NCBI GenBank assembly: GCA_050250375.1
Contig: JBFWOS010000002.1
Span: 645,149 to 709,148 of the forward strand
DNA from: Candidatus Omnitrophota bacterium
Lineage (GTDB): Bacteria > Omnitrophota > Gorgyraeia > Zapsychrales > Zapsychraceae
DNA: 64,000 nucleotides
Reading direction: 5' to 3'
The first letter of the stretch is position 1. Each line of letters opens with the position of its first letter. The position numbers and the translations under genes are program-made. Positions 23,293 to 50,677 of this stretch are shown here, piece by piece. A model generated the notes under the pieces. It did no database searches and had not been told where the DNA came from. It was given only the letters and a program-made list of their open reading frames with translations.

Positions 23293-23294
23293 AA

Positions 23295-28825: not shown

Positions 28826-28907
28826 GTTGATGTCTTGTCCAATGTTCTGTTTAATTAACTAATTTTTAAGAAAAGCATAACGGATTTTTAGCTCGACATT
28901 TTCTAAA

Positions 28908-29345: not shown

Positions 29346-29462
29346 TATCGGTATCTCCGTTATCTCTAAATAGAATGTGCCCTATCAATTTCTGAGCAAT
29401 TTTCAGCATGGTCGTCCTTTTTCTTGCCCAATGGTCAGCCGAATGTCCATAGGTATATTTTT

Positions 29463-32791: not shown

Positions 32792-33878
32792 ACTGTTTCT
32801 CTCCTTTCACCTGATTTTTTACTTTTGCGTCCTGCCATTCGGCCAAGCAACCGAACGCTGTCAACCCGGCACCAAATGCAAAGATACCGACCTGATCGCT
32901 GTCTTGGCATGTATTTTGTGCCAGGATATCTTTGAGGACATACAACACACTCGGGGACGACATGTTTCCGTAACGGGCGAGTACCGAACGTGAATAATCA
33001 AACGTATCCGGTTCAAACGGGTGGATTGATTCAATCGCATCAAGAATCGCACGTCCTCCCGGATGAACGGCAAGATAATCAAGATCCAATGTAAAATCTC
33101 GCGTTAATTTTTTATAAACCTGATAAAAAGCGGAAGCGGCTAATCCCGGGACCTCTTTTTTTAAGACATTCATTAAGCGGCCATTTTTTGTCACGTAGCG
33201 CAGGTCATCACGGTATTGCGGCCAAAGGATGGACTGGAATTCTTTGATCAGCAAACCGGTTGAGCGTTCTTTGTTTGTCATTAGGCAGGCCGCCGCTCCG
33301 TCACCAAAAATGGAATTGGAAATGATCAAGTCAAGATTTTCGCTCCAATATGATGTTGCTGTACAAATCTCCACCGCTAAGACAATGACATTGGCATGCG
33401 GGTGAGTGTTGAGATACTGCCAGGCCGATTTCATTCCCGGTACGGCCGCCCCGCAACCTGTTCCAACTATATCAAGCGCGTAAATATTTTCTTTTAATCC
33501 GGCGGCCTGGGAAATATAAGAAGTCAATCCCGGGCAAAGGTAACCTGTGCAAGTCGTAATGACAATACCGTCAATGTCATCTGGAATCAGTCCTGTTTGA
33601 TCAAGTAAACGTCTGACGGCCTCTGTTCCAAGTTTAGTCGCCTGAACCTGAAAACGATGGATGGCCTCGTCCTGAGTTTCCTCAAATAATTTTTCCGGCT
33701 CATCATCAATAGCCACATAGCGGGTATGTATGGACGGCTCGGCAAGAAATTTGCTGTAAAGCCGTTTTTCCTTCTTAGAACGCAACGGTGAGTTAAGGAT
33801 TCGCTCAAGAATAGCTTTTTGAGTTAACTTCAGAGGCGGGTTAGCGGTGGCAATATCGACCAATTTAACGGAAACCAT
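32775..33878 (-). CDS. Type III polyketide synthase (chalcone/stilbene synthase superfamily)
   Basis: Active-site region ITTCTGYLCPGLTSY resembles bacterial RppA-type TSCTGFMMPSLTA. C-terminal FAFGAGLTAFG approximates the GFGPGLT motif. 367 aa. Confidence 0.78.
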   Translation of the reverse strand: MVSVKLVDIATANPPLKLTQKAILERILNSPLRSKKEKRLYSKFLAEPSIHTRYVAIDDEPEKLFEETQDEAIHRFQVQATKLGTEAVRRLLDQTGLIPDDIDGIVITTCTGYLCPGLTSYISQAAGLKENIYALDIVGTGCGAAVPGMKSAWQYLNTHPHANVIVLAVEICTATSYWSENLDLIISNSIFGDGAAACLMTNKERSTGLLIKEFQSILWPQYRDDLRYVTKNGRLMNVLKKEVPGLAASAFYQVYKKLTRDFTLDLDYLAVHPGGRAILDAIESIHPFEPDTFDYSRSVLARYGNMSSPSVLYVLKDILAQNTCQDSDQVGIFAFGAGLTAFGCLAEWQDAKVKNQVKGEKQYEYVV

Positions 33879-35037
33879 AAGGACTCCTTTGCGACGTAAA
33901 AGCAGATGATTGATGAAATGTGTTAAATAAACTGTTTATATTTTTCTCGCGCCACTTAAGCACGCGGATAATCATGTTAGATGCATTCTTGTCGTGGCCG
34001 ATTGACCCGATCATTTTTGATAAACGGATCGGCCAGGCAAAACGACGTTTGAATGTTTTTTCATAAACACGGGCTACGGATGACCGGTCAACCTCCCCCG
34101 GACGGGTAGAACCGAGCAGGCCTCCTAAAAGGATGCCGCTATTTAAAGCCAAAGAAATGCCGCCTCCTGCAACAGGATGAATCAAAGCCGCAGCGTCACC
34201 GACATAAAAGGCGTTTCCATCGAAAAACCGGCTGCGGCGATTCATATCAACGAAAATCCCCTTCCATGGGCTGAGCAGACGGGACGAACCCATCTGCCGG
34301 CTTAAACACGGATTGGAGGAAAGTAAGTGAGACCAAATATTTTCGTACTTCCCCTTCAGCTGTTTAAAAAGAGAACCTTTAATGACATAACAGACGTTTA
34401 CGGCATTATTTTCAAAACGGTTAATGCCGACATGTCCCCGATCGATAAAGTGCATAATCACATCACTGCCCATATTTTGGCACGAATCAAACAGGCCAAA
34501 GACGCCAAACAACCGTGATGGGGAATTCTGTAATCCGGTTTCAGGAATGCCGCCATTGGCATAAATAAGATGCCGGACTTTGATGTCGTTTTGTATTGCA
34601 GCCTTTGATTTGGTAAGTGTCAATTGACACATCTGTGGCGTATGAACGATGTTTTTCGCCACGCACGCATCTTCAAAGATAACTCCCAAGCTTTTGGCTT
34701 TTTGAACCATGATGTCATCTAAAGATTTGCGGCTGAACCCTAAACCTGAATGGGAATTACTGTCGGTAAGTAATGGCACCCGGATGAATTGTCCATTGGA
34801 CGCACTTAAATGGACGTGTGTCACTTCCAGGGCCCCTTTCTCCATGATTTCGTCAAGGATACCGTAACGCACAAAGATAGACCTATTCTCAGGGCCAATA
34901 AAACCTCCGCACACTTTGTCTCTCGGAAAAGATGATTTTTCGATTAAAACGACTTTCCATCCTTTCGATGCCAACTCCATCGATGTCGCGAGCCCTGCCG
35001 GGCCGGCACCAATAATAGCCGCGTCGTAATAGTTCAT
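33865..35037 (-). CDS. FAD-dependent oxidoreductase/monooxygenase (geranylgeranyl-reductase-like)
   Basis: AAIIGAGPAGLATSMEL dinucleotide-binding motif and a GG-reductase-like core. Confidence 0.75.
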   Translation of the reverse strand: MNYYDAAIIGAGPAGLATSMELASKGWKVVLIEKSSFPRDKVCGGFIGPENRSIFVRYGILDEIMEKGALEVTHVHLSASNGQFIRVPLLTDSNSHSGLGFSRKSLDDIMVQKAKSLGVIFEDACVAKNIVHTPQMCQLTLTKSKAAIQNDIKVRHLIYANGGIPETGLQNSPSRLFGVFGLFDSCQNMGSDVIMHFIDRGHVGINRFENNAVNVCYVIKGSLFKQLKGKYENIWSHLLSSNPCLSRQMGSSRLLSPWKGIFVDMNRRSRFFDGNAFYVGDAAALIHPVAGGGISLALNSGILLGGLLGSTRPGEVDRSSVARVYEKTFKRRFAWPIRLSKMIGSIGHDKNASNMIIRVLKWREKNINSLFNTFHQSSAFTSQRSPYGFR

Positions 35038-35624
35038 GATGAAATCTCTTTAAGAAGCGACTGAAAGTGTATATGGACGGTGTCAAACACCCGGATTAAC
35101 ATCAAAACAGACGGCGGTTTGAGATTTAACGCCTTCAGGCTTAAATCGACGTCTCCGCTCAGCACAATTCCCTCTTCTGTTTCCGCAATCACAACAGGTA
35201 TTTCAATATTCTGTGATTGATCTTTAATGGTCAGCTGTCCTTTTAAAACATAGCTTCGTGGGCGGCTGTCCTTTGATGCCTGGGGCATCACCGTAGAGAA
35301 AGAATAACGGATGTCAGGAAAATGTTTGCTATCGAACATCAAGAACATTTGTTCGTCGCGCTTTTCATTCTGTGTATCCAGGGAAGATGTTTCAACATGA
35401 ACATCCCCTGATTCAAGAAAATGGTCTGATTCAGAATCTGTCTGAAATGTCCCTTTAAATCGGTGCGCCTTTCCTTCAACCTCGTGCAGTGTGGAGCGGA
35501 AGGAAAACTTAATGAGGCTTTGGCTCGTATCAATGGCATAAGTCGTCTGGTCAGCCATAACCGGCTTCAAAAACATGATTCCTGAAAGAGTGATAATGCC
35601 GAATACGATAAAGATGTTTTTCAT
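35034..35624 (-). CDS. YceI-like periplasmic lipid/polyisoprenoid-binding protein
   Basis: Start at MKNIFIVFG (signal peptide) with AAGGAGG 7 nt upstream. YceI-like beta-barrel region LIKFSFRSTLHEVEGKA. The ORF track extends to 35720 through the Shine-Dalgarno sequence. Confidence 0.65.
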   Translation of the reverse strand: MKNIFIVFGIITLSGIMFLKPVMADQTTYAIDTSQSLIKFSFRSTLHEVEGKAHRFKGTFQTDSESDHFLESGDVHVETSSLDTQNEKRDEQMFLMFDSKHFPDIRYSFSTVMPQASKDSRPRSYVLKGQLTIKDQSQNIEIPVVIAETEEGIVLSGDVDLSLKALNLKPPSVLMLIRVFDTVHIHFQSLLKEISS

Positions 35625-35776
35625 GGTGGTCCTCCTTAAAGGGATAGTATGCCTGAGTAAATCCAACAAATCACCCGGAGAATAGCGATCGGCCTGAAAA
35701 AACAATGAAAAAAATGTCACTGGAAGGAAGAATCCCGCAAATTTTTGCAGGGTGACGTTCAGGAGAGAATTTTTGT

Positions 35777-36331
35777 TTAGGAAATTCCGTACTTTTTCAG
35801 TTTATACCATAAGGTCCGTTCGGAAATTTTCAACAGTTTCGCGGCTTGAGCCTTGACATGGCCGGATTGTTCGAGGGCTTTGATGATCAATTCTTTTTCC
35901 CGCTGAGAAACACCTTCATCAAGCGATAGTAAAGGCTGTGTTGCGGTACCGGGTTGGGGATATTTTTGCAGGATTTCACGGATTAACTTTTCTAAATCAT
36001 CAACCGTAAAAGGCTTCTGAATATAATCATCCGCCCCGTGCTTAAGCGATTTTACAGCCGTATCAACATCCGAATGCGCGGTCATCACGATAATGGGCAG
36101 GTCAATGTTCAGGCGTTCCAATTCGTAGATCAGTTCAACGCCGGACATCCCAGGCAACCGTATATCGGTCAGCAGAATATCGACCGCTTTATTGAAGATA
36201 ATATCCAAGGCTTCTTCTGCTGTCGTCGCTGTCAGAACGTTAAACCCCAGAGGCTTAAATCCGAGGCGCAAGACGCGTAAAAGCCGCTCTTCGTCATCAA
36301 CAATCAATAAATTAACTACCGGCTGAGACAT
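35777..36331 (-). CDS. Response regulator, REC plus Fis-type HTH, no sigma54 AAA domain
   Basis: LLIVDDEE...DILLTDIRLPGMSG receiver domain and C-terminal HTH (GHVKAQAAKLLKISERTLWYKLKKYGI). Likely start at MSQPVVNL. Confidence 0.75.
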   Translation of the reverse strand: MSQPVVNLLIVDDEERLLRVLRLGFKPLGFNVLTATTAEEALDIIFNKAVDILLTDIRLPGMSGVELIYELERLNIDLPIIVMTAHSDVDTAVKSLKHGADDYIQKPFTVDDLEKLIREILQKYPQPGTATQPLLSLDEGVSQREKELIIKALEQSGHVKAQAAKLLKISERTLWYKLKKYGIS

Positions 36332-37634
36332 TGGAATTTTCCTTGGCTTTTTTAAATAATAAGGTGACCGTTGTTCCTTTTTCCGGGATCGACGTAAGCG
36401 CAATATGCCCCTTATTATTTTCGACAATTTTCTTGGCGACGAAGAGTCCAAGACCAGAACCATTTTCTTTTGTTGTTACAAATGGGTCAAAGACTTTATT
36501 GATGATCTTAGGATCGATGCCGCGGCCTGAATCACTGATAATTATTTCATAGATTCCTTTATTTGCAGAAGTTGTGATGGTGACCTCTTTGTCCGGACGG
36601 GAAGCTTGGATGGCGTTAAGGATGATGTTGATCAAGACTTGTTTCAATTGATCTCGGTCGCATAATATCCGCTGGCCGGCCGCTTTATTGGAGAACAGAA
36701 GGCGCACGCTGTGTTTTTTGCCAACCCCAACTAAGAGCTGAATAACCTGTTGAATGGTTTCGGCAGGATCTTCATCCGGTATGATTTTTTTCGCAGTTAT
36801 ATTTAATTGAAGGAGTTGGTCAATCAGACCATTAATTCGATCCGCCTCTTCGATCAGATATCCTGAAATCTCATACTCCTCGGAATCAGCAGGAAGTTTT
36901 TTCTTAATAACAGAGGCCGATGATTTAATGATACTCAGCGGATTACGAATTTCATGGGAAAGACTTTGGGCTATGAGGCCAATAGTCTGATTCTTTTCAT
37001 TGTTAATTAGGGACAGGGTATTTTTGTTGATCACGTGAATAAACCAGGTCGCCACTCCGGTCAGAAAAAGGAGAAAAACGACGGTCATGATTGTCATCGG
37101 GAGCAGGATTTGCTGTTTTGTTTCTTCCGCAGAGTTCGCGGCCTCGCCTATTTCCTGGATATAAAAACCTTGTAAGTTCATCGAAGCCAGGCGCATGGAC
37201 TGTAATTGTTGAATGACATGTTGTTTGAACGCAATTGAAGCAGAGGGTGCCTTAAGAGTTTCCAAGAGGATCTGGAAGTTATCAGCAATTTTCAGGTAAT
37301 CTTTATTTTCCGCGATGCTGTGGCTTGCTTCTTCATACTCTTCCAAACGGACGGAAGACTGCCGTATTTCATCCAATTCTTGTGATAATTGTTCCAAGGT
37401 GGCTAAATCGATCTTTTCCAGGGGCGCATTATTTTCAAGTTGCGATATGTCAGCGATAATTTCTTCTGTTTCATTGATAAAAGCGGTTACAACCTTAAGC
37501 TCCCTCCATTCTTCATCCAGACGTTGATGGGCGGTGTTCATCGCGAAGATTCTATTAAAAATAACACCCGCGCCGATTACGACAAATAAAAGAATGATGA
37601 AAATATATAATCTGACCTGGTGAGTTAGCTTCAT
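36312..37634 (-). CDS. Sensor histidine kinase
   Basis: Two transmembrane helices, HisKA H-box LSHEIRNPL and HATPase_c (DSGRGI...GSGLGL). Confidence 0.8.
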   Translation of the reverse strand: MKLTHQVRLYIFIILLFVVIGAGVIFNRIFAMNTAHQRLDEEWRELKVVTAFINETEEIIADISQLENNAPLEKIDLATLEQLSQELDEIRQSSVRLEEYEEASHSIAENKDYLKIADNFQILLETLKAPSASIAFKQHVIQQLQSMRLASMNLQGFYIQEIGEAANSAEETKQQILLPMTIMTVVFLLFLTGVATWFIHVINKNTLSLINNEKNQTIGLIAQSLSHEIRNPLSIIKSSASVIKKKLPADSEEYEISGYLIEEADRINGLIDQLLQLNITAKKIIPDEDPAETIQQVIQLLVGVGKKHSVRLLFSNKAAGQRILCDRDQLKQVLINIILNAIQASRPDKEVTITTSANKGIYEIIISDSGRGIDPKIINKVFDPFVTTKENGSGLGLFVAKKIVENNKGHIALTSIPEKGTTVTLLFKKAKENSNVSAGS

Positions 37635-37808
37635 AAAGAATTAGAATCATTTTTGTATTAGAGGGATACAATTGGCCTTAATTAATTCCCTGCTCGATTG
37701 GCGCTTCAGTGATATTTTCTTTTACTATTCTTTTTTGCAACCATCGGGCGCACATCTTCACAATAAAAATTGCTTTTTCGGGTGTGTCGTTCATAGGGGC
37801 AATTCACG

Positions 37809-37933
37809 AAGGCTTCTTATTAAACGGCAATTATACACCTTATCAGATATTCACGCAAGGCGGGTTTTGGAAGGAATGTTAAGACCGTTATTTTAGTGGA
37901 AACAGACTGGAAAGTATTTATTTAAGAGAAACG
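37809..37933 (+). repeat. Intergenic direct repeat copy 3
   Basis: See copy 2. Lies in the divergent region between the HK gene and the EPS operon. Confidence 0.85.
37830..37858 (-). promoter_or_regulatory. Sigma70-like promoter inside repeat copy 3, reading toward the HK/RR/PKS genes
   Basis: TTGCGT-N17-TATAAT on the minus strand (plus strand attata 37830-37835, acgcaa 37853-37858). Confidence 0.45.
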
Positions 37934-38069
37934 ACTTTCCTGTCCCGCGTAAAGCCTGACAAGACTGCCAATCCACATTAACCCGAGTTAATGTTTCTTT
38001 AATCTTAATTTAATACACAATCTGTTAATATCTCGCAAGGGTTGAGCATTACTCGGAAGGTGTAGGCCT

Positions 38070-38762
38070 ATGAGACAAAAAATTCGGATGTGGCCTTGGA
38101 TGATTGTCGGGATACTGATTGTGGTTGATACCTATCTGGTCTTTGAAACGACGCATACATTCTATAAACACTATCATATAGGCCGGCGTCTTTATGATGA
38201 AGGGAAATATTCCCAGGCCCTGCCTCATCTTTTAGGAGCTTATCGTATGAGCCCGGAGAACAAAAATGTTGGCTGGAAACTGATTTCGGCTTTCCAGCAG
38301 CTTGGACGGGAAGCCGAAGCGCGCCGTGTTCTCGAAAGACTGAGTGCCCGGACTTCGGTAAACCTTGAAGCCATCGAGCAATTGGGCGACATGTCGTATT
38401 CGACGAAGGCATATTCCCTGGCACGCCACCAATATTATCGAATACTACTGCGTAAACCATCTGATGAAATCCGAAAAAAGTATGCCTTGGCGCTTTTCGC
38501 GGAAGAAAACTATGTTGCGGCCCTTCAGCAAATGGACATTCTTTTGGCAAAAAAATCAGATGATTTTGATCTCCGTTTTCAACACGCACAAATCATTGCA
38601 GCTTTGGGAGATCATGATCGGGCGAGTCGCGAACTCAATTCATTAAGGGATGATGGGTACACAAAAAAAGAGGCGCTCATTTTGCTGGCGGACCAGCTCC
38701 GCCATCTCGGACGGGAAGAAGAAGCAATAAAAATATATCGGGAGGTATTCAATGAAAGCTAA
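38070..38762 (+). CDS. TPR-repeat protein with N-terminal transmembrane anchor
   Basis: One transmembrane helix (WMIVGILIVV) then TPR-like helical repeats. Its C-terminal about 130 aa is paralogous to the C-terminus of the next gene. Confidence 0.6.
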   Translation: MRQKIRMWPWMIVGILIVVDTYLVFETTHTFYKHYHIGRRLYDEGKYSQALPHLLGAYRMSPENKNVGWKLISAFQQLGREAEARRVLERLSARTSVNLEAIEQLGDMSYSTKAYSLARHQYYRILLRKPSDEIRKKYALALFAEENYVAALQQMDILLAKKSDDFDLRFQHAQIIAALGDHDRASRELNSLRDDGYTKKEALILLADQLRHLGREEEAIKIYREVFNES

Positions 38763-39651
38763 CAGGGCATGGATTGCCGCTGTATCTTCGATCTTTCTAA
38801 TTTTGACCGATTCCGTATCGTTCGGTGAAACAGATCTTACAGTCGAAGACCGGGCAAAGATGGGAGAAATTTATAGTCTGGAACGGCTTCAAAGATACGA
38901 TGAGGTAAAACCGCTTATCGCGGCGCTGCGCAGTCGATATCCTGAGAACAGCGAGATCAAATGGACGCAGGCGCGCATCCTGGGGTTCAGCGGGAGTTGG
39001 GAAGAAGCATCGGGCATTTTTGATGAGTTATGTGCCGATGAGTGTGAAAAAGAAATTGTCGTAACCTACGGGCACATCCTTGAATCGCAGGGCTCCAATC
39101 CCGGAACTTTGTCGCACATCAAGAAATTGGTGGACAGATATCCCGATTATGAAAAACTTCAGTCGATCTATATACAAATTTTATCCTGGAACGGCCAAAA
39201 CCCGGAAGGACGTGCTGCTCTCGAGAAACTCCATGAACAATTCCCGGAAGACCTTAAAATTATCGCTGCCTTGGGAGACGCTGCGTACGCCGCTGAAAAA
39301 TATACGCTTGCAGAGAAATATTATAGACATTTCCTGAGCCAGGAAATGTCTCCGGACGTTCACAATAAGTTCATCAATACACTGATTAGTCAGAAAAAGC
39401 ATGTGGAAGCGATTGAGGAAATGGATCGTTTGCTTCTCGAGGATCCGCAAAATCCGGATTTGCGCCATCAGTATGCCAGGGTCCTCTCCACCGCGGGAAA
39501 GCATGAAGAGGCCGTCAGTGAGTTAAAGACGTTGTTGCAGGAAGGCTATCAGAAAAAAGAGGCGCTGGTCCTGCTTGGCGATGAGCTTCGTTTATTGGGA
39601 CGCAATGATGAAGCTCTAAAGGTCTATCGCGAGGTTACAAATGCGGATTAA
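38752..39651 (+). CDS. Secreted TPR-repeat protein
   Basis: Signal peptide. The N-terminal domain (LTVEDRAKMGEIYSLERLQRYDE...) is paralogous to the N-terminus of 39641-41566. The C-terminus is paralogous to 38070-38762. Confidence 0.6.
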   Translation: MKANRAWIAAVSSIFLILTDSVSFGETDLTVEDRAKMGEIYSLERLQRYDEVKPLIAALRSRYPENSEIKWTQARILGFSGSWEEASGIFDELCADECEKEIVVTYGHILESQGSNPGTLSHIKKLVDRYPDYEKLQSIYIQILSWNGQNPEGRAALEKLHEQFPEDLKIIAALGDAAYAAEKYTLAEKYYRHFLSQEMSPDVHNKFINTLISQKKHVEAIEEMDRLLLEDPQNPDLRHQYARVLSTAGKHEEAVSELKTLLQEGYQKKEALVLLGDELRLLGRNDEALKVYREVTNAD

Positions 39652-41566
39652 ATGGCCGTTCGTGTTACCTTTATTGCTGATCGCCGGGGTTGCATCAAAG
39701 GCCTACGGGGCCAGCCCTCCCCTCACGCTTGAGGATCGCGCCAAAATCGGAGAAATTTACACTCTGGAGGATCTGAAACAGTACGATGACGCCTTACCGC
39801 TGATCGAGGATCTCATGGATCGGTATCCCGATGACAGGGAGGTTCAGCGGACCTATGTGCGGATCGTTGGATTTGGAGGAGACTGGGAACGGGCCGCGGA
39901 AGTTATGGAGACCCTGTGTGTGGAGCACTGCGATGACCAAATTGTCGAAACATACGGACATATCCTTGAGGCACAAGGCCCAAATCCGGATACACTGGTC
40001 GAGATGGAAAGACTCCTTGAGCGGTACCCTCAGAATCCTGAGCTTAAATCCATTTATGCGGACATGTCTACCTGGAATCAATCATCGAACGCACAGTCGG
40101 CGACTGTTAATACCCCTCAGGATGGTCAGGTCGATTTGAATGATGTTCAAATTCTTGTCGAGCAGAATAGGCATGAGGAAGCTCTGGACTTGATTGAGCG
40201 TTACCTGGACACCTCCCCAGAAGATGAATCGGCGCTCCTGTGGAAAGCTCGCGTCCTGAGCTGGTACGGGAAACGAATTCCTGCTATTCGGGTGTATCAG
40301 GAACTAATACAGGCCGATCCAGACAACATCACGTATTATCGAGAATGCGCACGTGTTATGGGATGGGCCGGAAATTATTATAATTCGAGCAAGATTTATC
40401 AGAAGGCGATCGAACGTTTTCCTGATCACGCAGGCCTTAAGGCCGAGGCCGCCGCAAAAAACGCCTATTATCACGGTAAATTCCTTCAGGCTGAAGAAAA
40501 CTACCGTAATTGGTTGGAGATAGAGTCGGGTAACCCCGAGGCTCTTTTTGATTTGGGGCAGATCCACGCGCGCAGCCGGCGCTTCTCGGCTACCCAGATG
40601 GACTATGCGGAACTGTTCGAGAGATATCCGAGCATCGATGAAGCCCGTTCTGCCCGTGATAAGGCCGATTTGTACGCACATGGTTGGATGACGGAATCCG
40701 GATTTACGCGCTATGAGGCGGACAGCGAATCCCGGCAGGCGGACGTACGGTTGAATCAGATTTTTACACAATTCGAAAAGATGATTCTCGGGAACATGTG
40801 GGTCGGGATACGGACCGAGGATCTGGATTATTTCTTCAACGATACGGATGCTGAGATCAGCCGTCAACGCTATTCGGCCTGGCTGGGACAAGGTTTCTCT
40901 CCTACGACATATTGGCAGGCGGGATTCGGAATCAGTAAATCTTCCGATGGGCTCAAGGACCTTTATTATCCCCATGCGCAAGTTCAGCTGCCTTTCATAT
41001 CTGAGAAATTTTTATGGAATCTTTCCTATAAACAAGACGATATCATCCAAAATTCAGACACGATCATCAGCACCCTGCAAGCCGATGAATATCGCGTGCG
41101 TGGGACATACAAGCCGTTTAAATTTATCGAAATCGGTGGTGATGAAAGTATTGCCCTATACTCCGATGACAATGAGCGGGAGATGTTCGGCGGCGACGCA
41201 GCATGGATTATGCTGCATGAACCCATGCGTTTGGTGGCGAAATATCGTTGGCAAAATACCCAATATGATCAGATCAATCCGGATTATTTCTCACCGGATG
41301 ACTTCGTATCCAAACGGGCTTCGCTGGAATGGCAGCATTACCTCAATAAGCGCAATTTATATTGGGGAGCAAATCAAACTTGGTACCGGCTGAAATATGA
41401 ATACGTTATGAATCCAAGTGATATTAATCATGTGATTACGGCCGGACTCAACCTGGAGTTGAGTAAAAGGTTGATATTAAAAGTTGAAGCCCAACGCACT
41501 TTGCACGAAGACCAGGATATATATAAAGAAAACATAGGAACGGCTTCGGTATTCTTCATTTTTTAG
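39641..41566 (+). CDS. Outer-membrane exopolysaccharide export protein, BcsC/PgaA-like: TPR N-terminus plus C-terminal beta-barrel
   Basis: Signal peptide, TPR region, then an about 300 aa C-terminal region with alternating aromatic/hydrophobic pattern ending in F (…ASVFFIF), as expected for an outer-membrane beta-barrel. Confidence 0.6.
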   Translation: MRIKWPFVLPLLLIAGVASKAYGASPPLTLEDRAKIGEIYTLEDLKQYDDALPLIEDLMDRYPDDREVQRTYVRIVGFGGDWERAAEVMETLCVEHCDDQIVETYGHILEAQGPNPDTLVEMERLLERYPQNPELKSIYADMSTWNQSSNAQSATVNTPQDGQVDLNDVQILVEQNRHEEALDLIERYLDTSPEDESALLWKARVLSWYGKRIPAIRVYQELIQADPDNITYYRECARVMGWAGNYYNSSKIYQKAIERFPDHAGLKAEAAAKNAYYHGKFLQAEENYRNWLEIESGNPEALFDLGQIHARSRRFSATQMDYAELFERYPSIDEARSARDKADLYAHGWMTESGFTRYEADSESRQADVRLNQIFTQFEKMILGNMWVGIRTEDLDYFFNDTDAEISRQRYSAWLGQGFSPTTYWQAGFGISKSSDGLKDLYYPHAQVQLPFISEKFLWNLSYKQDDIIQNSDTIISTLQADEYRVRGTYKPFKFIEIGGDESIALYSDDNEREMFGGDAAWIMLHEPMRLVAKYRWQNTQYDQINPDYFSPDDFVSKRASLEWQHYLNKRNLYWGANQTWYRLKYEYVMNPSDINHVITAGLNLELSKRLILKVEAQRTLHEDQDIYKENIGTASVFFIF

Positions 41567-41585
41567 GGTACATGGGAGAGATGCC

Positions 41586-43121
41586 ATGAAATATAATAAG
41601 AAAATAATTCTTCAGACCAGACCCTCAAAGGCCTTAGTCGTAATTTTGCTGGTATCCCTCGTTATTTATGTCATTATTCGCACACTATATCTTTGGTTTG
41701 CCATGGGCACGAAGTTGGAAATGGTTTTAGCCTGGATTTTTCTGGGTGCGGAATTATTCATCATGATTCACGCCATCGGATATTATTTGAATGTATTGAG
41801 GGCAAACTCCCCTTCGCATTATCCAAAGATAGCCGATGAGGAACCATCTATTGCTGTCCTGATCCCCGCCCGGCACGAACCCAGTGATGTAATCGAACAG
41901 ACACTTCTGGCTTGCTATAATCTGGACTACGAGAATAAATCCATTTATTTGCTGGATGACTCCTCCATCGTATCCTACAAACAAGAGGCAAATAGGATCG
42001 CCGAGCAGTTTGGTTCAGTCGTGTTTTCCAGGGATGAACATCGCGGAGCCAAGGCCGGTATCATCAATGATTGTTGCCGCACTTTAAGTGAAAAATATGT
42101 TGCCATACTGGATGCCGATCAGAACCCCATGCCGCATTTTTTAAAGGCCCTGGTGCCGTACCTGCAGCAGGATGAAAATCTGGCCTTCGTACAAAGTCCG
42201 CAATTCTATACCAATTGCTCCGTCAACAGTGTTGCGATGACGTCAAATTACCAACAAGGTATATTTTACGAATATATTTGCGAAGGAAAAAGCCGTAACG
42301 GAGCGATGATGTGCTGCGGAACAAATGTTCTGATGCGAAGAGCGGCTCTTGAGGACATCGGGGGCTTTGACGAAAAAACTGTGACCGAGGACTTTGCCAC
42401 CTCCCTTCGCTTGCATCTTAAGGGATGGAATACACTGTACATTAATAACCCCCTGGTTTTCGGTATGGCGCCACAAGATCTGATCGCGTATTTCAAACAG
42501 CAGTCACGCTGGTCAATGGGAAACACTCAGGTTTTTAAAAGCGTGATCAGGGCTTTCTTTACCCAGCCGTTCAGGCTGACAACCCGACAATGGTTTGAAT
42601 ATTTTATTACGGGTACTTATTATTTTATTGCCTGGGCCTATTTATTTTTGTTTGCCTTTCAGTTGATTTTCACTTTCTTAAATGTGCCGTCATTTTTTAT
42701 GGATCCCTATGTATACACGACCACGTTCATCCCGTATTTCCTGTTGGCCCTTGCTGTATTTTATTCCAGCATGGGATTGCGCCACTATGCGTTTTCAAAT
42801 ATCCTTAAAACTCACCTTTTGACGATTTTATCCATACCAGTTTACCTGAGAACAACACTGCTTGGGTTAATAAACATTCACAGCAAGTTTCAGGTTACGC
42901 CCAAGACGGGATCCACACGAGTGCCGTATAGGTTGTTATGGGGGCAGATATTTTTCTGGGTCTTGAATCTTATTGCGATGACATGGGGTATTTTAAGATG
43001 GATTTATGAAAGGAATATGGGAATCCTTTTTAACGTGTTCTGGCTCTTTGTTCACGCAATTGTTTTTTCATCGATATTCTATTTTAACGAAAATGAATGG
43101 GTGCAGGAGCAGGAGATATGA
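41586..43121 (+). CDS. Processive family-2 glycosyltransferase, cellulose-synthase/PgaC-like, no PilZ domain
   Basis: DxD motifs (YLLDDSS, ILDADQNP), TED motif (TEDFATS) and QQSRW (QxxRW). Flanked by N- and C-terminal transmembrane helices. Confidence 0.8.
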   Translation: MKYNKKIILQTRPSKALVVILLVSLVIYVIIRTLYLWFAMGTKLEMVLAWIFLGAELFIMIHAIGYYLNVLRANSPSHYPKIADEEPSIAVLIPARHEPSDVIEQTLLACYNLDYENKSIYLLDDSSIVSYKQEANRIAEQFGSVVFSRDEHRGAKAGIINDCCRTLSEKYVAILDADQNPMPHFLKALVPYLQQDENLAFVQSPQFYTNCSVNSVAMTSNYQQGIFYEYICEGKSRNGAMMCCGTNVLMRRAALEDIGGFDEKTVTEDFATSLRLHLKGWNTLYINNPLVFGMAPQDLIAYFKQQSRWSMGNTQVFKSVIRAFFTQPFRLTTRQWFEYFITGTYYFIAWAYLFLFAFQLIFTFLNVPSFFMDPYVYTTTFIPYFLLALAVFYSSMGLRHYAFSNILKTHLLTILSIPVYLRTTLLGLINIHSKFQVTPKTGSTRVPYRLLWGQIFFWVLNLIAMTWGILRWIYERNMGILFNVFWLFVHAIVFSSIFYFNENEWVQEQEI

Positions 43122-44248
43122 AGCCGATTATTTATTTATTGCTTGTCGTATTCGGGGTCTTTTTTCTGGTGGCCTGGATGCTTTCCGCGCTGACAAAAGA
43201 TGAGGCCTTTGTGCGACTGGAAGAAGGCTGGCGTGGATACAAGAATATTTTTGTTCAACCGGACGGAAAGGTATATCGAATCGAGGAAGAGGATGTTACT
43301 TCTGAAGGCCAGGCGAACGCCATGCTTCGCGCTGTCATCATGGATGATCAGGAGACCTTTGGGCGGATCTTAACTTGGACACAGAATAACCTGTCACGCA
43401 AAGACCGCGAGGGAGATTACTTGTTGTCGTGGTACTATAAAAATGGTGCCGTTCAGGATTCCATGCCGGCCGCTGATGCAGATATCGAATATGCCCTTGC
43501 GCTACTGCTGGCGTCACGAAAATGGGATGACGGTACCTATGCGGAGACGGCGTTGTTGGTACTCAAGGATATCCTGGACCGGCTGACAGTCGTGTTTCGA
43601 GGACGCCGCTATCTATTGCCGTGGATCATCCAGGACCCCGCTGATCAGGAGAGAATTCCTCAGAATCTCTCCTACTATTCCCCGTCTTTTTTTAAATTTT
43701 TCTACGAGTATGACCGGGATCCACGTTGGCTGGAACTTGTGGATACCACTTATGATCTTTTACTGCAAGCCCAAAAGGAATTTGACGGAATGCAGGGTTG
43801 CGGAGTAGTGCCGGATTGGAGTAAAGTCGACCATCAAGGTAAGCTTCATGCCTATGAGGGAAAATCCAGCAATTTTTCCTGGGAAGCGGTGAGAGTACCC
43901 ATGCGTGTCGGCATCGATGCTTTTTTATTTCGTGACCCCCGGGCCATTGAAGTGTTGTCCGGATTCGTCAAGTTTGCCGAAACGCAGTTAAACGAAACTG
44001 GAAAACTTGTCAGCAAGTACAGTTATGATTGTAAGCCCCTTTCAACACCGGAAAGCCCGCTCATGTTTTCGTCTATCTACATCGCCATGGAATTGACCAA
44101 TAGTCCGCAGGCTTCGTCTGTATGGGAAAGGCTGTCGCAATGGTTTCACCGGAGCCGGAAAGGCGGATATTACGAGGACCCGCGTAAGTATTATACGAAC
44201 AGTCTCGTATGGGTTGCAGACTTCTTATATATGGAGAAAGCGCAATGA
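43097..44248 (+). CDS. Glycoside hydrolase family 8 (BcsZ-like endoglucanase)
   Basis: GH8 signature AADADIEYALALLLASRKW. N-terminal transmembrane anchor or signal peptide. Confidence 0.78.
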   Translation: MGAGAGDMKPIIYLLLVVFGVFFLVAWMLSALTKDEAFVRLEEGWRGYKNIFVQPDGKVYRIEEEDVTSEGQANAMLRAVIMDDQETFGRILTWTQNNLSRKDREGDYLLSWYYKNGAVQDSMPAADADIEYALALLLASRKWDDGTYAETALLVLKDILDRLTVVFRGRRYLLPWIIQDPADQERIPQNLSYYSPSFFKFFYEYDRDPRWLELVDTTYDLLLQAQKEFDGMQGCGVVPDWSKVDHQGKLHAYEGKSSNFSWEAVRVPMRVGIDAFLFRDPRAIEVLSGFVKFAETQLNETGKLVSKYSYDCKPLSTPESPLMFSSIYIAMELTNSPQASSVWERLSQWFHRSRKGGYYEDPRKYYTNSLVWVADFLYMEKAQ

Positions 44249-44478
44249 GTAGTGATGAAATGATGTCAACGCTGGAGGAAATCCGCAAAATCGAAGGGGC
44301 TATCTCACTTTACTTAGGGCATATAAGGAATACACTGAATTTCTCTGGCTTTGATAAGGCGCTGCTAAATGATGTTGAAAAACGTCTTGCCTCTATACAT
44401 AGGGAAAGCCAAGAACAGAATATTTCTCTTAAGTATTTAATTGAAGAAATTAAGAAAGGAAACCGGAATGTTTACTAA
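44245..44478 (+). CDS. Small hypothetical protein, translationally coupled to the GH8 gene
   Basis: ATGA overlap with the GH8 stop. 77 aa with no known motif. Confidence 0.35.
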   Translation: MSSDEMMSTLEEIRKIEGAISLYLGHIRNTLNFSGFDKALLNDVEKRLASIHRESQEQNISLKYLIEEIKKGNRNVY

Positions 44479-44803
44479 TGAGATCTACAGCGAATATTTT
44501 CACGAGATATATCTTAAAAAGAAGAAAAAACTTAAATTGCTCTGCTTTTTGTCGGAACAAATTCTGGACGATGCTGTTGGAAAAGTCCTGGCCCGATTCT
44601 TGGAACAGGACATACGGCATGTGTTATTGCTGGAAGAATTGCTGGCATCGGTAGCCCCCCAAGAACGGTCTGAGGCTTATAGCGCTGAAGATACGACCGA
44701 AGAAAGCAGTTTACTTCTATTGGAGGATATTAAACGTATCCTGCAGAATAAAAAAGCTCAAGAGCCACGGTTTTCTCCATGGTATATGCGGGAAGAGCGG
44801 TAG
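44468..44803 (+). CDS. Small acidic hypothetical protein
   Basis: Start at MFTNEIY, overlapping the previous stop. No known motif. Confidence 0.35.
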   Translation: MFTNEIYSEYFHEIYLKKKKKLKLLCFLSEQILDDAVGKVLARFLEQDIRHVLLLEELLASVAPQERSEAYSAEDTTEESSLLLLEDIKRILQNKKAQEPRFSPWYMREER

Positions 44804-44868
44804 TGATATAGCCTTGCTTGAGTAAGCGGTCATCCATAGGTTTTAAAGACTTTTTTTGCAGGAGACTT

Positions 44869-44968
44869 TTACAAATTATCGGATATTCACGTAAGGCGGG
44901 TTTTGGAAGGAATGATTGGATCGTTATTTTAGTGGAAACAGGCTGGAAAATATCGCCTAGGAGAAACG
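44869..44968 (+). repeat. Intergenic direct repeat copy 4, the most diverged
   Basis: acaaattatcggatattcacgtaaggcgggttttggaaggaatg...ttttagtggaaacaggctggaaaa...taggagaaacg. The -10 element is degenerate (TAAAAG). Confidence 0.8.
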
Positions 44969-44971
44969 ATG

Positions 44972-45367
44972 TTATTTTTTACTTTGCGTCCTTAATATTT
45001 TATTCATTTCTTTTCCCATGGCCAATTCATCGATTAATTTATCCAGATAACGGATGTTTCTCATCAGTTTATCTTCAATGTCTTCGATGCGATACCCGCA
45101 GATTGTCCCTTTGATCAAGGCCACATTCGCATTCATTTGAGGCGCCTGTTCAAAAAATGTCTCAAAATCATTCTTTTTATCCAGTTGTTCCTGCAGACCT
45201 TTTTTGTCATATCCGGTTAACCAGAATATGATTTCATCGACCTCTGCCTTTGTGCGTCCCTTTTTCTCTGCTTTTTGAATATATAAAGGGTAAACGCCGG
45301 CAAAAGCGATCGTATAAATTTTAGGTTTTTCGCCCTTCGGTTTAATAATCTTTTTTTTGCCGGTCAT
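44972..45367 (-). CDS. DUF2200-like hypothetical protein
   Basis: 131 aa. [24 protein letters not shown] resembles DUF2200 proteins, from memory. Confidence 0.45.
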
Positions 45368-45418
45368 GATTTCATCTTCCTCTCTTTTTTTATCTAACGG
45401 TCATCAAAAAAGGATACA

Positions 45419-46678
45419 TTATTTCAATAAAGGCAACCCGCGTCCGATAATATATCTAAACCAGTACCCGGCCAGCAGAGATGTAACGATGGCAATCAGC
45501 ACCAGGACAACAAAAAATGTTTCATTAATAATCCCCATGTCAAACGCAACCGTGGCTAAAACGATTCCCGGTCCTCCTCTGGTGTTCATGGCAACTCCCA
45601 AATTAAAACTGGAAAGCCAATCTTTGCCTGCTAATCGTGAGGCTGCCATTGTTCCGATCGTTTCAAACAAGGCGCTAAACACCAAAAATCCCAGAAAGAG
45701 TATGGGGTCAAAGTGATGAACTAAATCCAGTTTCAGCCCGACCACGGCAAAATAAATGGGGATAAAGAAACCCAGGGATATTTCCTTAATGTGCACCTTC
45801 ACCGTATTGAATTTTTCATCAGGAATCATCCCGATTACGATGCCGGCCAGAAAGGCCCCGAATACAATATTGACATCCAAAACACTGGCTATAGCCGAAA
45901 ACAAAAAACATATGAATAAAACATACCCGGATACCGATGATTTAATAAGCAAGTTGCCTCTTGATTTGTTGCTTTTATTAATGATCTTTGGCATAACAAA
46001 AAGAGAAATTAAAAAGAACATCAAAGTGATAAACACGGTTGTGACGACACTCATCGGCGTGACCGTCTCGTTGCTGACAAGACCTGTCGCGATAGCCAGC
46101 GCGATCCAGAGAATGACATCTTGAATAGTCGCTGTTGCCAGGACGACTTTGGCAAAACGGGTTTCCATGATATCGAGATCAATGAATATTCTTGATATGA
46201 CCGGTATGGACGTTACGGCAACGGCAATCGCAATAACAATCGTTAGGGCAAGCATGTTGCCCTTTGTTCCTAAATAAGGGGAAAAATCAAAAAACCGGGG
46301 AGCGATCCAGCCTGCAAAAAATGGAATGACTGTCGCTCCGAGCAAAAGAAAGACGCACAATTTTCCGTCTTCCTTTGTCAGGGATTTCTGGATTTCAAAA
46401 CCGGACAGAAACATTAATAAGACAAGCCCCATCCAATAAATCAAGGAGATGAGTTTGCCTTCTCCCTCGAAAGCGTTGAAGATCCAGTCATAAATGCCCG
46501 GGGAAAAATAACCCAAAAACGAAGGTCCAAGGAGTAATCCGCCGGTAATTTCTCCGATCACCCGGGGCATCTTGAATCTGTGAAAGAGATACCCAAATAC
46601 ATGCGCCGATATTAAAAGGGCGGCAATGGCGAAGAAAAATCGTGTTAATTCAAAGTTTGTTAATGTTATTAAACTCAT
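45419..46678 (-). CDS. Cation:proton antiporter (CPA/Kef-type Na+/H+ exchanger family)
   Basis: 419 aa with about 12 transmembrane helices and sodium/hydrogen-exchanger-like helices. Confidence 0.7.
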   Translation of the reverse strand: MSLITLTNFELTRFFFAIAALLISAHVFGYLFHRFKMPRVIGEITGGLLLGPSFLGYFSPGIYDWIFNAFEGEGKLISLIYWMGLVLLMFLSGFEIQKSLTKEDGKLCVFLLLGATVIPFFAGWIAPRFFDFSPYLGTKGNMLALTIVIAIAVAVTSIPVISRIFIDLDIMETRFAKVVLATATIQDVILWIALAIATGLVSNETVTPMSVVTTVFITLMFFLISLFVMPKIINKSNKSRGNLLIKSSVSGYVLFICFLFSAIASVLDVNIVFGAFLAGIVIGMIPDEKFNTVKVHIKEISLGFFIPIYFAVVGLKLDLVHHFDPILFLGFLVFSALFETIGTMAASRLAGKDWLSSFNLGVAMNTRGGPGIVLATVAFDMGIINETFFVVLVLIAIVTSLLAGYWFRYIIGRGLPLLK

Positions 46679-46715
46679 TCAATAATGCAGGTCCGTGGAT
46701 ATTTATTGTCAGATT

Positions 46716-48809
46716 CTAACGGGTTTGCTGGAGCATCATGATTGTATGCTGGAATTTTTGTGAATACTTCTGCTGTATCCGCCGGAATTCCTCCTGTAAC
46801 GACTGACGTTCCTGATCGGAACGTGTTTTAATGATTTTGGGTTCATAATCCGCTTTAATGTCCGCCATGAGTTCTTTGTACGCTTCGTTCATTTCCTGGA
46901 TAAGTGTTGTCTTTGGATTGACGGATGTTTCCCGCTGGGCAGTGCCGCGGGTCTCTCCCCGGCGGCGGGCGTAAGGATCCTGTGTCGTTGACTCTTGCTG
47001 CCGGTCCCCCGGCGCAGACACCGGCGCGTTTTTGGAAACCGGCTTGTCCTTCATCTTGAGGATGGCATCGAACCTTTCCTGGTAAGGGTCCTCCTTCAAG
47101 CGGGTGCTAAACGTATTCGGCGCGTTTCCGGTCAGTTTTGATTCGATGTACTGCGCGCGTTTGGTCTGGGCGTTCATCAACCGCTCCCAGGCCGCCGTGT
47201 CCATGGGCGGGGCGGCTGTTTTCACCTTGGGTTCCCGAGGGATGTCCCTGGATATGATCTTCTCCGGTTTCGGCGGCGGCAGATACTTGGCCGGCACAGG
47301 TCCCGGCGGATCGCTTTCCTGAGCAGCGCCGGCCAGAACTAATCCCTCCTCCTGAAGCGACGGCAGGCCGTTGGCCGCGCGGACCAGATTCTCCCCGAGC
47401 TGTGTGATCGTGGCGCAGTCACAAGGATGGTCCTTAAAAAATTTTCCCAATTGATAGGCCTCATTGTTCTCCATCGTCGCGTTGATCTTGTCCTTAAAAT
47501 CTTTAACACCCATGTCGGTGTATTTTTTTTCGTTATGCATCATATCGTTCATGGACTTGGCGAAAAAATATTTGAACACCGCCGGCCGGTAATCATTCCA
47601 TTGGGGCGTAAACCGTTTATCGATATAAACCTCTTCATAGGTATCGCGGTACTGGCTTTCCTGGTGGCCGTCCATGTAATAGGTCGTGCTGATCTTTTCG
47701 GAAGACGGGATCAGGTATTTTTTGAATTCTTTCACGTAATCCTTGCAGCGGGTGGAAAAGATCTCCGCATAGGAATTGAAATACATCTTGAACTTCTCGT
47801 TATCCGCATACAGTTTGAAATCGCCGTCAAAAATACGCCGCGGCAGTTCGAAATCCTTATATTTAGCCCAAAACTCGTCATATTTATACACGACCCCAGG
47901 CTGCCGGGTCTGAAGGCTGTAATGGTCCCGGCGGTGGGCCGCGTTGACATATAAAACGTCATTTTTGTGTTCGATGAATCCGGCCAGGGTCAGGTCCTTG
48001 TTCTGCTTCGGATCATAATTGAAAAAAACGCTGTTGTCCGCGGACCGGCGCGGAGGGATCACTTCCAGCGTTCCGGAACGCAGTTGATATGAGTAAATAA
48101 TGATGCCTCGTTCGGGCCGCCAATGGCGTTCCGTGTCCAGTTCGTATTCATCTTTATAAAAATGGTGGACCAGCACGCCTTCGAGATTGCCGCAGCGGTT
48201 GAGAAAGGGTTTTAACGTCTCATTAAGCCCGGCGATAAAGTCCGCGTCCGGCACGCCGTTGGTCAGGGGGATGATCGTCGCCTGCGGATCGGAAACGTCG
48301 TGTTCGATATAAAGGTTAAAGACCGGGTTCGACTCCGAGACATACTGCTCGGACTCGATCTCGACGCGTTTGTATTCCTTGTCCAGCCATTCCTTACTGT
48401 CCTTCTGCTCTTGCATAAGATCATCGAGGACTGTTTGATATTCTTCGCGCGTAATCGTCTTATGCTGATAAAGCATTTTGGGAAGCTGGCGCATGTGTTC
48501 CTGGTTTTCATCCATGAACTTTTGCCACTGCTCATAGAGCGGTTTGGTGTGTTCTTTCTGATAAGCCCATTTGCGTTCCTGTGTGGAATCCCGCTCCTGG
48601 CTGGTCATGACAGGAAGCCGGGTGAACCGGGCCGGACAGGCGGCGGCCTCCCCGTTCCATTCGGCATCGGGCGAATAGACTTTATACCCCTGACCTTCGG
48701 CCAGCAGACGGCCGAACTTACTGGTTCGTTCCTCCCGTGCCCATTGTTCATCGGCAAAAGCCTGATTAACGTAAAGGAGTAAAAAACACAAATAAAGAAT
48801 CTTTTTCAA
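46716..48809 (-). CDS. Large secreted hypothetical protein
   Basis: Signal peptide MKKILYLCFLLLYVNQAFA. 697 aa rich in K/E/Y/W, with a Pro-rich segment. No known domain. Confidence 0.5.
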   Translation of the reverse strand: MKKILYLCFLLLYVNQAFADEQWAREERTSKFGRLLAEGQGYKVYSPDAEWNGEAAACPARFTRLPVMTSQERDSTQERKWAYQKEHTKPLYEQWQKFMDENQEHMRQLPKMLYQHKTITREEYQTVLDDLMQEQKDSKEWLDKEYKRVEIESEQYVSESNPVFNLYIEHDVSDPQATIIPLTNGVPDADFIAGLNETLKPFLNRCGNLEGVLVHHFYKDEYELDTERHWRPERGIIIYSYQLRSGTLEVIPPRRSADNSVFFNYDPKQNKDLTLAGFIEHKNDVLYVNAAHRRDHYSLQTRQPGVVYKYDEFWAKYKDFELPRRIFDGDFKLYADNEKFKMYFNSYAEIFSTRCKDYVKEFKKYLIPSSEKISTTYYMDGHQESQYRDTYEEVYIDKRFTPQWNDYRPAVFKYFFAKSMNDMMHNEKKYTDMGVKDFKDKINATMENNEAYQLGKFFKDHPCDCATITQLGENLVRAANGLPSLQEEGLVLAGAAQESDPPGPVPAKYLPPPKPEKIISRDIPREPKVKTAAPPMDTAAWERLMNAQTKRAQYIESKLTGNAPNTFSTRLKEDPYQERFDAILKMKDKPVSKNAPVSAPGDRQQESTTQDPYARRRGETRGTAQRETSVNPKTTLIQEMNEAYKELMADIKADYEPKIIKTRSDQERQSLQEEFRRIQQKYSQKFQHTIMMLQQTR

Positions 48810-50623: not shown

Positions 50624-50677
50624 AAAAAGGTGACGGACACCGTTTTTCAATATAAAAACGGTGTCCGTCACCTTTTT
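50624..50677. terminator. Perfect palindromic terminator, identical to 63004-63057
   Basis: aaaaaggtgacggacaccgtttttcaatataaaaacggtgtccgtcaccttttt. Confidence 0.7.

Follow-up and report, generated by a model that had tools for sequence, protein, structure and literature searches.

A cellulose-synthase-like operon of an Omnitrophota bacterium, probably for synthase-dependent secretion without BcsB or PilZ, accompanied by two half-ferritin-like small proteins

The biofilm matrices of Gram-negative bacteria are understood mainly through synthase-dependent secretion, the route taken by cellulose, poly-N-acetylglucosamine (PNAG), alginate and Pel, and in current models cellulose synthase cannot do without BcsB and a PilZ domain. 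The glycosyltransferase PgaC, for its part, relies on a small partner protein, PgaD, for control by cyclic di-GMP (c-di-GMP). The cellulose systems classified as Bcs types I–III are built around a BcsA–BcsB catalytic tandem, completed by BcsC or by the porin-less tetratricopeptide-repeat (TPR) protein BcsK, and the only BcsB-less examples in that classification are cyanobacterial systems with HlyD/TolC-like partners (PMC8892547). Here we analyse an operon at positions 38070–44803 of a 64,000-nucleotide stretch of DNA from Candidatus Omnitrophota bacterium (assembly GCA_050250375.1, contig JBFWOS010000002.1; the whole stretch is called the window below). Its seven plus-strand open reading frames (ORFs) encode, in order, three TPR proteins (TPR1, TPR2 and TPR3), a family 2 glycosyltransferase (GT2), a family 8 glycoside hydrolase (GH8) and two small proteins, sA and sB. 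We think it likely that the seven genes make up a synthase-dependent exopolysaccharide secretion operon of the cellulose-synthase kind, belonging to a distinct lineage that has neither BcsB nor PilZ. The elements listed in an initial annotation of this DNA are all present, at or within a few bases of where they had been placed; what we find most interesting, the putative half-ferritin pair sA and sB and the breadth of the gene cassette, lay outside its emphasis.

The synthase resembles BcsA in sequence and, more closely, in its predicted structure. The GT2 matches the Pfam family Glyco_tranf_2_3 (2.2e-28) and, weakly, Cellulose_synt. Its best NCBIfam model is that of CelA/BcsA, TIGR03030 (5.9e-66, model positions 49–558 of 714), at 222.9 bits below the cut-off of 699.1; the scores against NF008558 (162.9 bits, cut-off 992) and against the PgaC model TIGR03937 (103 bits, cut-off 422.3) also fall short. 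Among PDB sequences the best matches are the BcsA proteins of E. coli (3e-43) and Rhodobacter (4e-39), with an alignment to residues 194–684 of E. coli BcsA that takes in transmembrane (TM) helices TM3–TM8 and the GT domain and leaves the first two TM helices and PilZ outside. Identity to BcsA is just 27–29%. In an AlphaFold2 model, computed from an alignment of 76 homologues (pLDDT 92.7, pTM 0.91), a pair of TM helices at the N-terminus precedes the GT-A domain, after which come four more TM helices together with interface helices and a gating loop. When this model is compared with the PDB by Foldseek, BcsA takes all of the first eight places (TMq up to 0.82; rmsd 3.4 Å to 9b8v_E), and plant CesA and hyaluronan synthases rank after it. 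Over the 76 homologues, D124/D125 (LDDSS), D176xD178 (DAD), CCGTN (243–247), T267-E268-D269 and Q305xxR308-W309 (QQSRW) are invariant, as are F435, T438 and K440 (FxVTxK) of the gating loop FQVTPK at residues 435–440. Given the ranking of the model and the invariant motifs, we read the GT2, on sequence and modelling, as a processive synthase-translocase of the BcsA type. A non-processive GT2 of the Dpm type, the finding that would have spoken against the initial annotation, is ruled out by the motifs and the structural ranking. The annotation had also named DxD, TED and QQSRW and the absence of PilZ, and this holds: Pfam finds no PilZ match (PF07238) in the GT2, whose C-terminus lies 10 residues past the last TM helix.

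At the database level, the protein is 100% identical to an NCBI entry labelled 'MAG: glycosyltransferase [Candidatus Omnitrophota bacterium]'. GT2s of rhizobial megaplasmids share about 28% identity with it. In a tblastn search of plasmids all matches are at 26–29%, a spread too narrow to choose between BcsA and other rhizobial GT2s (BgsA, for example) as its closest characterised relative. Among the related loci described below, a subfamily of GT2s of ~610 aa (L004, L013, L039, L041, L042, L052, L056, L057, L061, L066 and L086) carries a C-terminal extension of ~100 aa. This extension gives a sub-threshold PilZ match (E 0.022) without an RxxxR motif, and a hidden Markov model (HMM) built from the PilZ domains that are fused to sB does not match it; we leave it as PilZ-like and apparently degenerate.

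An export pore of the expected class is predicted at the end of TPR3. Pfam finds TPR families in genes 1–3, ahead of the GT2 and GH8 as originally described, and the AlphaFold2 model of TPR3 (pLDDT 82.2) consists of about nine TPR hairpins at residues 30–347 followed by 16 strands at 349–640 (nucleotides ~40685–41560) and a terminal Phe. Its top five Foldseek matches in the PDB are BcsC (9b8a, 9b8h and 6tzk), PelB (9h80) and PgaA (4y25, TMt 0.78, rmsd 3.8 Å); against the NCBIfam sequence models of BcsC and PgaA it scores below the cut-offs. The modelled C-terminus of TPR3 is thus a 16-strand outer-membrane barrel of the BcsC/PelB/PgaA class, in line with the annotation, which had noted a barrel-like domain with terminal Phe and likened it to BcsC or PgaA. 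A helical or soluble C-terminus is ruled out by the 16 modelled strands; the lack of a barrel would have been the second finding to speak against the annotation.

The other two TPR proteins would lie between the membranes. TPR1 begins with a hydrophobic helix, MWPWMIVGILIVVDTYLVF, and its homologues, ~195–245 aa long, share a hydrophobic N-terminal segment followed by an xTQ motif and TPRs; in many loci outside Chlorobi they are encoded immediately ahead of the porin (phmmer E 3e-88 to 5e-6). We take TPR1 to be a membrane anchor with its TPR part in the periplasm, and this combination to be a conserved component of the cassette. In Chlorobium luteolum (CP000096; L002, 8297–9967) a 556-aa porin protein itself starts with a hydrophobic helix and STQ, like the anchored TPR1s; a single chain may unite anchor and porin there, unless the helix is simply a signal peptide. 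The N-termini of TPR2 and TPR3 are signal-peptide-like, and TPR2 appears to be a secreted periplasmic TPR protein, a mosaic paralogue specific to its lineage. Its residues 7–147 are 45% identical to TPR3 5–146 and its residues 107–297 are 35% identical to TPR1 38–228 (BLASTP E 7e-32), whereas cross-combinations of the modules reach just 19–24%. The swapped modules seen by the initial annotation are therefore there, but the recent shuffling that it deduced from them is ruled out: identities are 35–45% in protein and 57% in the DNA of the N-module shared by TPR2 and TPR3, and the same TPR1/TPR2/TPR3 layout is found in the related loci L001/L007 (GT2 75% identical) and L006 (GT2 68%). By these comparisons the mosaic looks real but old.

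The hydrolase that follows the synthase has an N-terminal signal peptide or anchor and belongs to Pfam Glyco_hydro_8 (PF01270, 9.9e-36); as the annotation had it, the family signature ADADIEYALALL is present, along with the catalytic motifs SEGQ and AADADIEYA, which hold the catalytic Glu and Asp. It matches the NCBIfam BcsZ model NF008305 over 43–370 (1.5e-35, 122.8 bits) without reaching the cut-off of 299, and is most simply read from its sequence as a BcsZ-like periplasmic glycanase. Among related loci, GH8 occupies the hydrolase position in 37 ORFs, and in about as many loci it is replaced by a secreted GH26-like protein of ~315 aa (PF02156, 7.6e-14, 9.3e-13). In a neighbour-joining tree of the GT2s, computed without support values, the hydrolase type tracks two main clades, and the window GT2 falls in the GH8 clade, next to Chlorobiaceae. 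Since the hydrolase varies by GT2 clade, it does not identify the polymer. An idea that we had considered, of GH8 and GH26 as interchangeable enzymes acting on a lichenan-like polymer, was dropped for the same pattern, which one old swap would explain as well as two different polymers would. To name the product cellulose would be more than the evidence allows.

The arrangement is not peculiar to this genome. Counted with one genome per species, relatives of the GT2 occur in at least 562 species genomes, and the candidates include more than 1000 proteins of the GT2 family at E ≤ 0.001, mostly of ~500 aa and PilZ-less; in hundreds of genomes, the ~500-aa forms stop just past the last TM helix. 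The genomes with a relative belong to Omnitrophota, Chlorobiaceae, Planctomycetota (including Phycisphaerae and Sedimentisphaerales) and Elusimicrobiota, and further to Fibrobacteres, Latescibacterota, Sumerlaeota and Auribacterota. For gene content, the stop-to-stop ORFs of 85 related loci and of the window were translated and searched with iterated HMMs seeded from three loci; removal of duplicates left 83 loci. The usual gene order is TPR-porin, GT2, a GH8 or GH26 hydrolase, sA and sB. A barrel HMM places a porin domain near the GT2 in 75 ORFs from 86 sources (the 85 loci and the window), and sA and sB are each found in ~78 distinct ORFs, with sA always just before sB. The two lie within 6 kb of the GT2 in 70 of the 83 loci, spread over at least eight phyla; the 13 loci without them are six truncated contigs and seven Chlorobiaceae loci with ample flank, and in Chlorobium luteolum the pair, complete in its ligands, stands upstream of the porin gene. 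Approached from the other side, three sB-family proteins picked by profile search without reference to the GT2 all proved to lie in the same cassette. What had been described as two tiny ORFs trailing the operon are thus the most conserved accessory genes of the cassette, above GH8. We found no description of the cassette in the searchable literature on Bcs/BcsK, on Omnitrophota cellulose synthase, on PilZ with ferritin-like proteins or on synthase-dependent GH26/GH8 systems, and regard it as a widespread, apparently undescribed form of synthase-dependent secretion.

The window copies of sA and sB match nothing in Pfam or NCBIfam and show no membrane or secretion signals. A ferritin-like relationship becomes visible only through profiles built from 80 loci. 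The sB profile matches, among PDB sequences, the Due Ferri di-metal helix-loop-helix peptides (5c39 at 9.6e-8, 1mft and 1y47), the designed di-iron protein 2hz8, symerythrin (4e-6) and bacterioferritin, and also the encapsulated ferritins EncB/EncC and manganese catalase; the sA profile gives weak matches only, the best being the encapsulated ferritin EncC at 0.011. Some sB members are labelled 'ferritin family protein' by NCBI. The sB consensus over the N-terminal ~65 aa, MFTKEDY..YF...E...DE.rH, comprises M-F-T-K-E-D-Y..Y-F, E18, D34, E48 and H51, so that helix 1 supplies one Glu and helix 2 the ExxH motif, and the ligands are conserved at 68% (E18), 77% (E48) and 78% (H51). In the sA family, E18, Y24, H27, an L-F-x-S-G-L loop (variable as L(F)xSG(L/F)), S56, H59 and a C-terminal D-V-Y are conserved; relative to sB, Ser mostly replaces the Glu of ExxH and there is a nine-residue loop insertion. 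Profile–profile alignment by hhalign pairs the two families at 91–92% probability (E 6e-7 to 9e-7), which marks them as distant paralogues. Profile evidence thus points to the N-terminal ~65 aa of sB as a half-ferritin helix-loop-helix, and to sA as its diverged half-ferritin paralogue. A word-indexed protein search with the sB profile gave just 15 proteins, and an exhaustive search was needed to recover 1581 clusters (50% identity) at E ≤ 0.001, mostly of ~64 aa, including a few proteins of 117–180 aa that match in two stretches. Because of the paralogy and of these two-stretch proteins, we infer that sA and sB may assemble into a four-helix bundle holding two metals.

The domains to which sB is joined in relatives suggest what such a pair might do. 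In 14 related loci, L037 and L059 among them, sB is fused to PilZ (PF07238, 6.7e-9, 1.9e-6; RRxxxR and DxSxxG), in L053 it forms the N-terminal part of a TM-HAMP-GGDEF protein (9.5e-47), and in L075 it stands ahead of REC and CofD domains. These fusions argue for a signalling role, and we infer that sA and sB form a cytoplasmic, heterodimeric half-ferritin signalling module of the synthase, probably a gating sensor, which in many lineages would deliver c-di-GMP control in trans. This bears on another claim of the initial annotation, that BcsB, a deacetylase and a c-di-GMP receptor are missing. For the window copy the claim stands, as Pfam finds neither BcsB nor a deacetylase, PilZ or GGDEF gene among the operon genes and the 10 flanking ORFs (31246–37634 and 44972–48809), and none of the seven window proteins gives a PilZ match, the PilZ receptors being marked by RxxxR and (D/N)xSxxG; for the family it does not, given the sB-PilZ and GGDEF fusions of relatives. 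A different partner, unexpected for a polysaccharide operon, occurs in five Chlorobiaceae loci (L025, L030, L031, L036 and L038), where, in ORFs of 457–524 aa, a long linker of low complexity connects sB to a NotI-like restriction-endonuclease domain (PF12183, 2.4e-55). The sB proteins observed beside the ~610-aa GT2s (e.g., in L004) have lost the histidine of ExxH (…SENMEAF…).

The seven genes follow each other at distances of −11, −11, +19, −4, −4 and −11 nt, junctions from which we read a single, translationally coupled operon (Table 1). Of the two possible starts of GH8 the downstream ATG at 43118, which overlaps the stop codon of the GT2 as ATGA, is the likelier, and the true start of sB is the ATG at 44468 (MFTNE...), not the TTG at 44441. 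A scan for sigma-70 promoters and intrinsic terminators over 37500–45500 gave results no better than those from shuffled sequence. Divergent from the operon lies a two-component system, whose possible role as its transcriptional input is only suggestive, because the closest relative, L001, has no such system beside the operon; in 16 of the 83 loci, REC-domain genes lie no more than 3 kb from the cassette.

Table 1. Coordinates in the window of the operon genes, the adjacent two-component system and the bracketing repeats
Feature	Position	Strand	Length (aa)	Remarks
TPR1	38070–38762	+	230	
TPR2	38752–39651	+	299	
TPR3-porin	39641–41566	+	641	C-terminus ...VFFIF
GT2 synthase	41586–43121	+	511	
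GH8	43118–44248	+		PF01270; alternative upstream ATG 43097
sA	44245–44478	+	77	
sB	44468–44803	+	111	
Histidine kinase	36312–37634	−		HisKA/HATPase_c (Pfam); divergent from operon
REC + Fis-type HTH response regulator	35777–36463	−		Response_reg + HTH_8 (Pfam); likely start near 36331
D1 copy 3	37774–37933	+		divergent promoter region upstream of TPR1
D1 copy 4	44810–44969	+		immediately after sB stop codon

From these parts a working scheme can be assembled. The GT2, as a minimal BcsA core, would build a beta-linked glycan, most likely a beta-glucan, from a nucleotide-sugar and extrude it through a channel of its own in the membrane. The chain might then be handed over in the periplasm from the inner-membrane-anchored TPR1 to the soluble TPR2 and on to the TPR arm of TPR3, leaving the cell through the 16-strand porin, while the periplasmic GH8 would trim or release it in the manner of BcsZ. 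In the cytoplasm, sA and sB would pair into a four-helix bundle, dock on the synthase and gate it, and in many relatives the module would bring along PilZ and hence c-di-GMP control. In the window copy, sB has K18 and D48 at two ligand positions, keeps H51 and ends in an acidic tail of 45 residues that is not PilZ, and sA keeps E18 and H27 and has Q at the position of H59. With PilZ lacking and the metal ligands partly lost, control is likely to be transcriptional, through the neighbouring two-component system, to act via sA and sB alone, or both. Carried one step further, the scheme becomes a BcsB-less BcsA core controlled by a heterodimeric 'natural Due Ferri' pair that senses metal, redox state or O2 and is often coupled to c-di-GMP through a fused PilZ or GGDEF domain; this extension we offer as a tentative idea, more speculative than the operon assignment itself.

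Several observations weigh against these proposals. GH8 enzymes act on several substrates, the family's members including chitosanases, lichenases, xylanases and PssZ, the hydrolase of the Listeria Pss exopolysaccharide. The GT2, GH8 and porin all lie far below the NCBIfam equivalog cut-offs for their Bcs counterparts. The window copies of sA and sB are without several consensus ligands (sB E18K and E48D, sA H59Q), and the metal site may be degenerate here. The seven Chlorobiaceae loci with ample flank have the cassette but no sA or sB nearby, so that the pair would appear not to be indispensable everywhere, and the two-component system missing from L001 leaves the regulatory link open to doubt. 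In the systems studied so far BcsA activity requires BcsB (PMC8892547), and a BcsA-like GT2 with the same motifs, RiGT2 of Romboutsia, makes (1,3;1,4)-beta-glucan (PMC10374906).

Three alternative readings can be set against ours. The locus might be a canonical Bcs operon making beta-1,4-glucan, whose BcsB and c-di-GMP receptor genes lie at other places in the genome, and the best matches of the GT2, GH8 and porin are indeed BcsA, BcsZ and BcsC. We consider this improbable, as the synthase is only 27–29% identical to BcsA, reaches under a third of the bit score demanded by the CelA/BcsA model and, in its ~500-aa forms, stops after the last TM helix in genome after genome. The conserved gene order of the 83 loci, in which no search for BcsB was made, has no BcsB-sized partner, and no gene is annotated as BcsB in the related loci examined, while the published types I–III all include it (PMC8892547); the conserved partners are instead sA/sB and the anchored TPR protein. 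In the second alternative the product could be a different polymer, such as a mixed-linkage beta-glucan, a beta-mannan-like glycan or an amino-sugar polymer, for which the GH8 would be specific. The replacement of GH8 by a GH26-like hydrolase in the sister clade, the agreement between hydrolase type and GT2 clade, the product of RiGT2 and the breadth of the GH8 family all fit this view. Against it, the PgaC model scores far below the CelA model (103 versus 223 bits), the operon has no deacetylase or other modifying enzyme, and the window lies in the GH8 clade, with a hydrolase that matches BcsZ over 43–370. We regard a different polymer as possible but not as the likeliest case.

The third alternative concerns the small proteins, which could be unrelated passengers without a role in polysaccharide production, such as an iron-storage or detoxifying ferritin-like pair or an addiction module. 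Their lack of membrane and secretion signals, their resemblance to ferroxidase-type half-ferritins such as the encapsulated ferritins and their absence from the seven Chlorobiaceae neighbourhoods would all suit passengers. Yet the pair is translationally coupled to GH8, keeps its fixed order across at least eight phyla even when the hydrolase changes, and was met in the same cassette at each independent look-up of sB; the fusion partners PilZ, GGDEF and REC speak of signalling and not of storage. A passenger role therefore seems unlikely to us, and a module serving the synthase remains our preferred reading of sA and sB.

The surroundings of the operon are less readily tied to it. Beyond the two-component system, the minus strand at 31246–35720 carries genes for a short-chain dehydrogenase/reductase (SDR), a UbiE-type methyltransferase, a type III polyketide synthase, an FAD-dependent oxidoreductase and a YceI-like protein, a cluster that may be an alkylresorcinol/pyrone-type lipid pathway; an FAD oxidoreductase is also found upstream of the cassette in L001. 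Downstream follow DUF2200, a Na+/H+ exchanger and, on the minus strand at 46716–48809, a secreted protein of 697 aa that has a signal peptide and charged stretches of low complexity and matches no Pfam family. As the initial annotation had noted, the operon is bracketed by two copies of a repeat, which the coordinates bear out. This intergenic element of ~120–160 nt, D1, has four plus-strand copies in the window, the other two at 27770–27929 and 31028–31187. Its 30-nt core has four matches against none expected by chance, and the perfectly conserved core reads …ATTCACGCAAGGCGGGTTTTGGAAGGAATG…TTTTAGTGGAAAC…GGAGAAACG. D1 has no match in Rfam and no copies in the 85 related loci (L001–L085), and its consensus fold is weak on either strand, with one compensatory pair and little covariation; it could be a MITE/REP-like element, a small RNA or a regulatory site.

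Elsewhere in the window, a perfect palindrome of 54 nt, AAAAAGGTGACGGACACCGTTTTT…AAAAACGGTGTCCGTCACCTTTTT, occurs in two identical copies 12.4 kb apart (50624–50677 and 63004–63057) and looks like a reused, bidirectional terminator-like hairpin. The stretches 28001–30000 and 55001–60000 are low in GC (0.33–0.41 versus ~0.45–0.55 elsewhere) and are possibly acquired islands. Inverted repeats ~400 nt apart, made of short GTGATAAG/GATCAGTGATCA-like units, are found at 19485–19976 and 22814–23303.

If the operon works as we suggest, the cassette would show a natural minimal BcsA core working with partners other than BcsB and PilZ, and would bring synthase-dependent systems to anaerobic phyla that are little studied and for the most part uncultured. 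It would also add a regulatory module, two half-ferritins of ~70 residues, as a natural equivalent to the Due Ferri designs, and the module's past fusions to PilZ, GGDEF and REC can be traced; were the sensing idea true, oxidative or iron status would be tied directly to matrix production in mostly anaerobic bacteria. Because the cassette exists in cultured strains, namely Chlorobium luteolum DSM 273 (CP000096, about 1.117–1.122 Mb) and relatives of Chlorobium chlorochromatii and Elusimicrobium minutum, the hypothesis is open to direct testing.

Set beside the described systems, the locus is closest to Bcs, with which it shares a processive GT2 carrying the D,D,D,QxxRW, TED and FxVTxK motifs, a TPR protein with a predicted 16-strand porin, a putative periplasmic GH8 and the organisation in an operon. 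It differs in that the window operon and its 10 flanking ORFs are without BcsB, that the GT2 is without PilZ and the two N-terminal TM helices of BcsA, and that an apparently anchored TPR protein and the sA/sB pair are added; where the cassette family has a c-di-GMP input, it would come in trans, through sB-PilZ. The PgaABCD system offers a close structural match to the TPR3 barrel in PgaA, which has the same architecture of TPRs and barrel, and PgaC, too, is a PilZ-less GT2; the window operon, however, has no PgaB deacetylase, its hydrolase is a GH8, and its synthase falls well short of the PgaC cut-off. PgaD, moreover, is a membrane protein, whereas sA and sB are predicted soluble half-ferritins. 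BcsA-like cores without BcsB are known from cyanobacterial CesA (with HlyD/TolC), Sinorhizobium BgsA and Romboutsia RiGT2, a group that also shows that beta-glucans other than cellulose are possible (PMC8892547, PMC10374906), but these export through MFP/TolC or have no porin, and none has been described with a TPR-porin and a half-ferritin pair. Finally, the predicted ~65-aa helix-loop-helix of the sB family, whose consensus has a Glu in the first helix and ExxH in the second, resembles EncFtn/EncB/EncC, symerythrin and Due Ferri, in which a unit of this kind dimerises into a four-helix bundle with a di-metal site; what would set sA and sB apart is that they form a diverged heteropair, encoded in a polysaccharide operon with no encapsulin nearby and fused in relatives to signalling domains.

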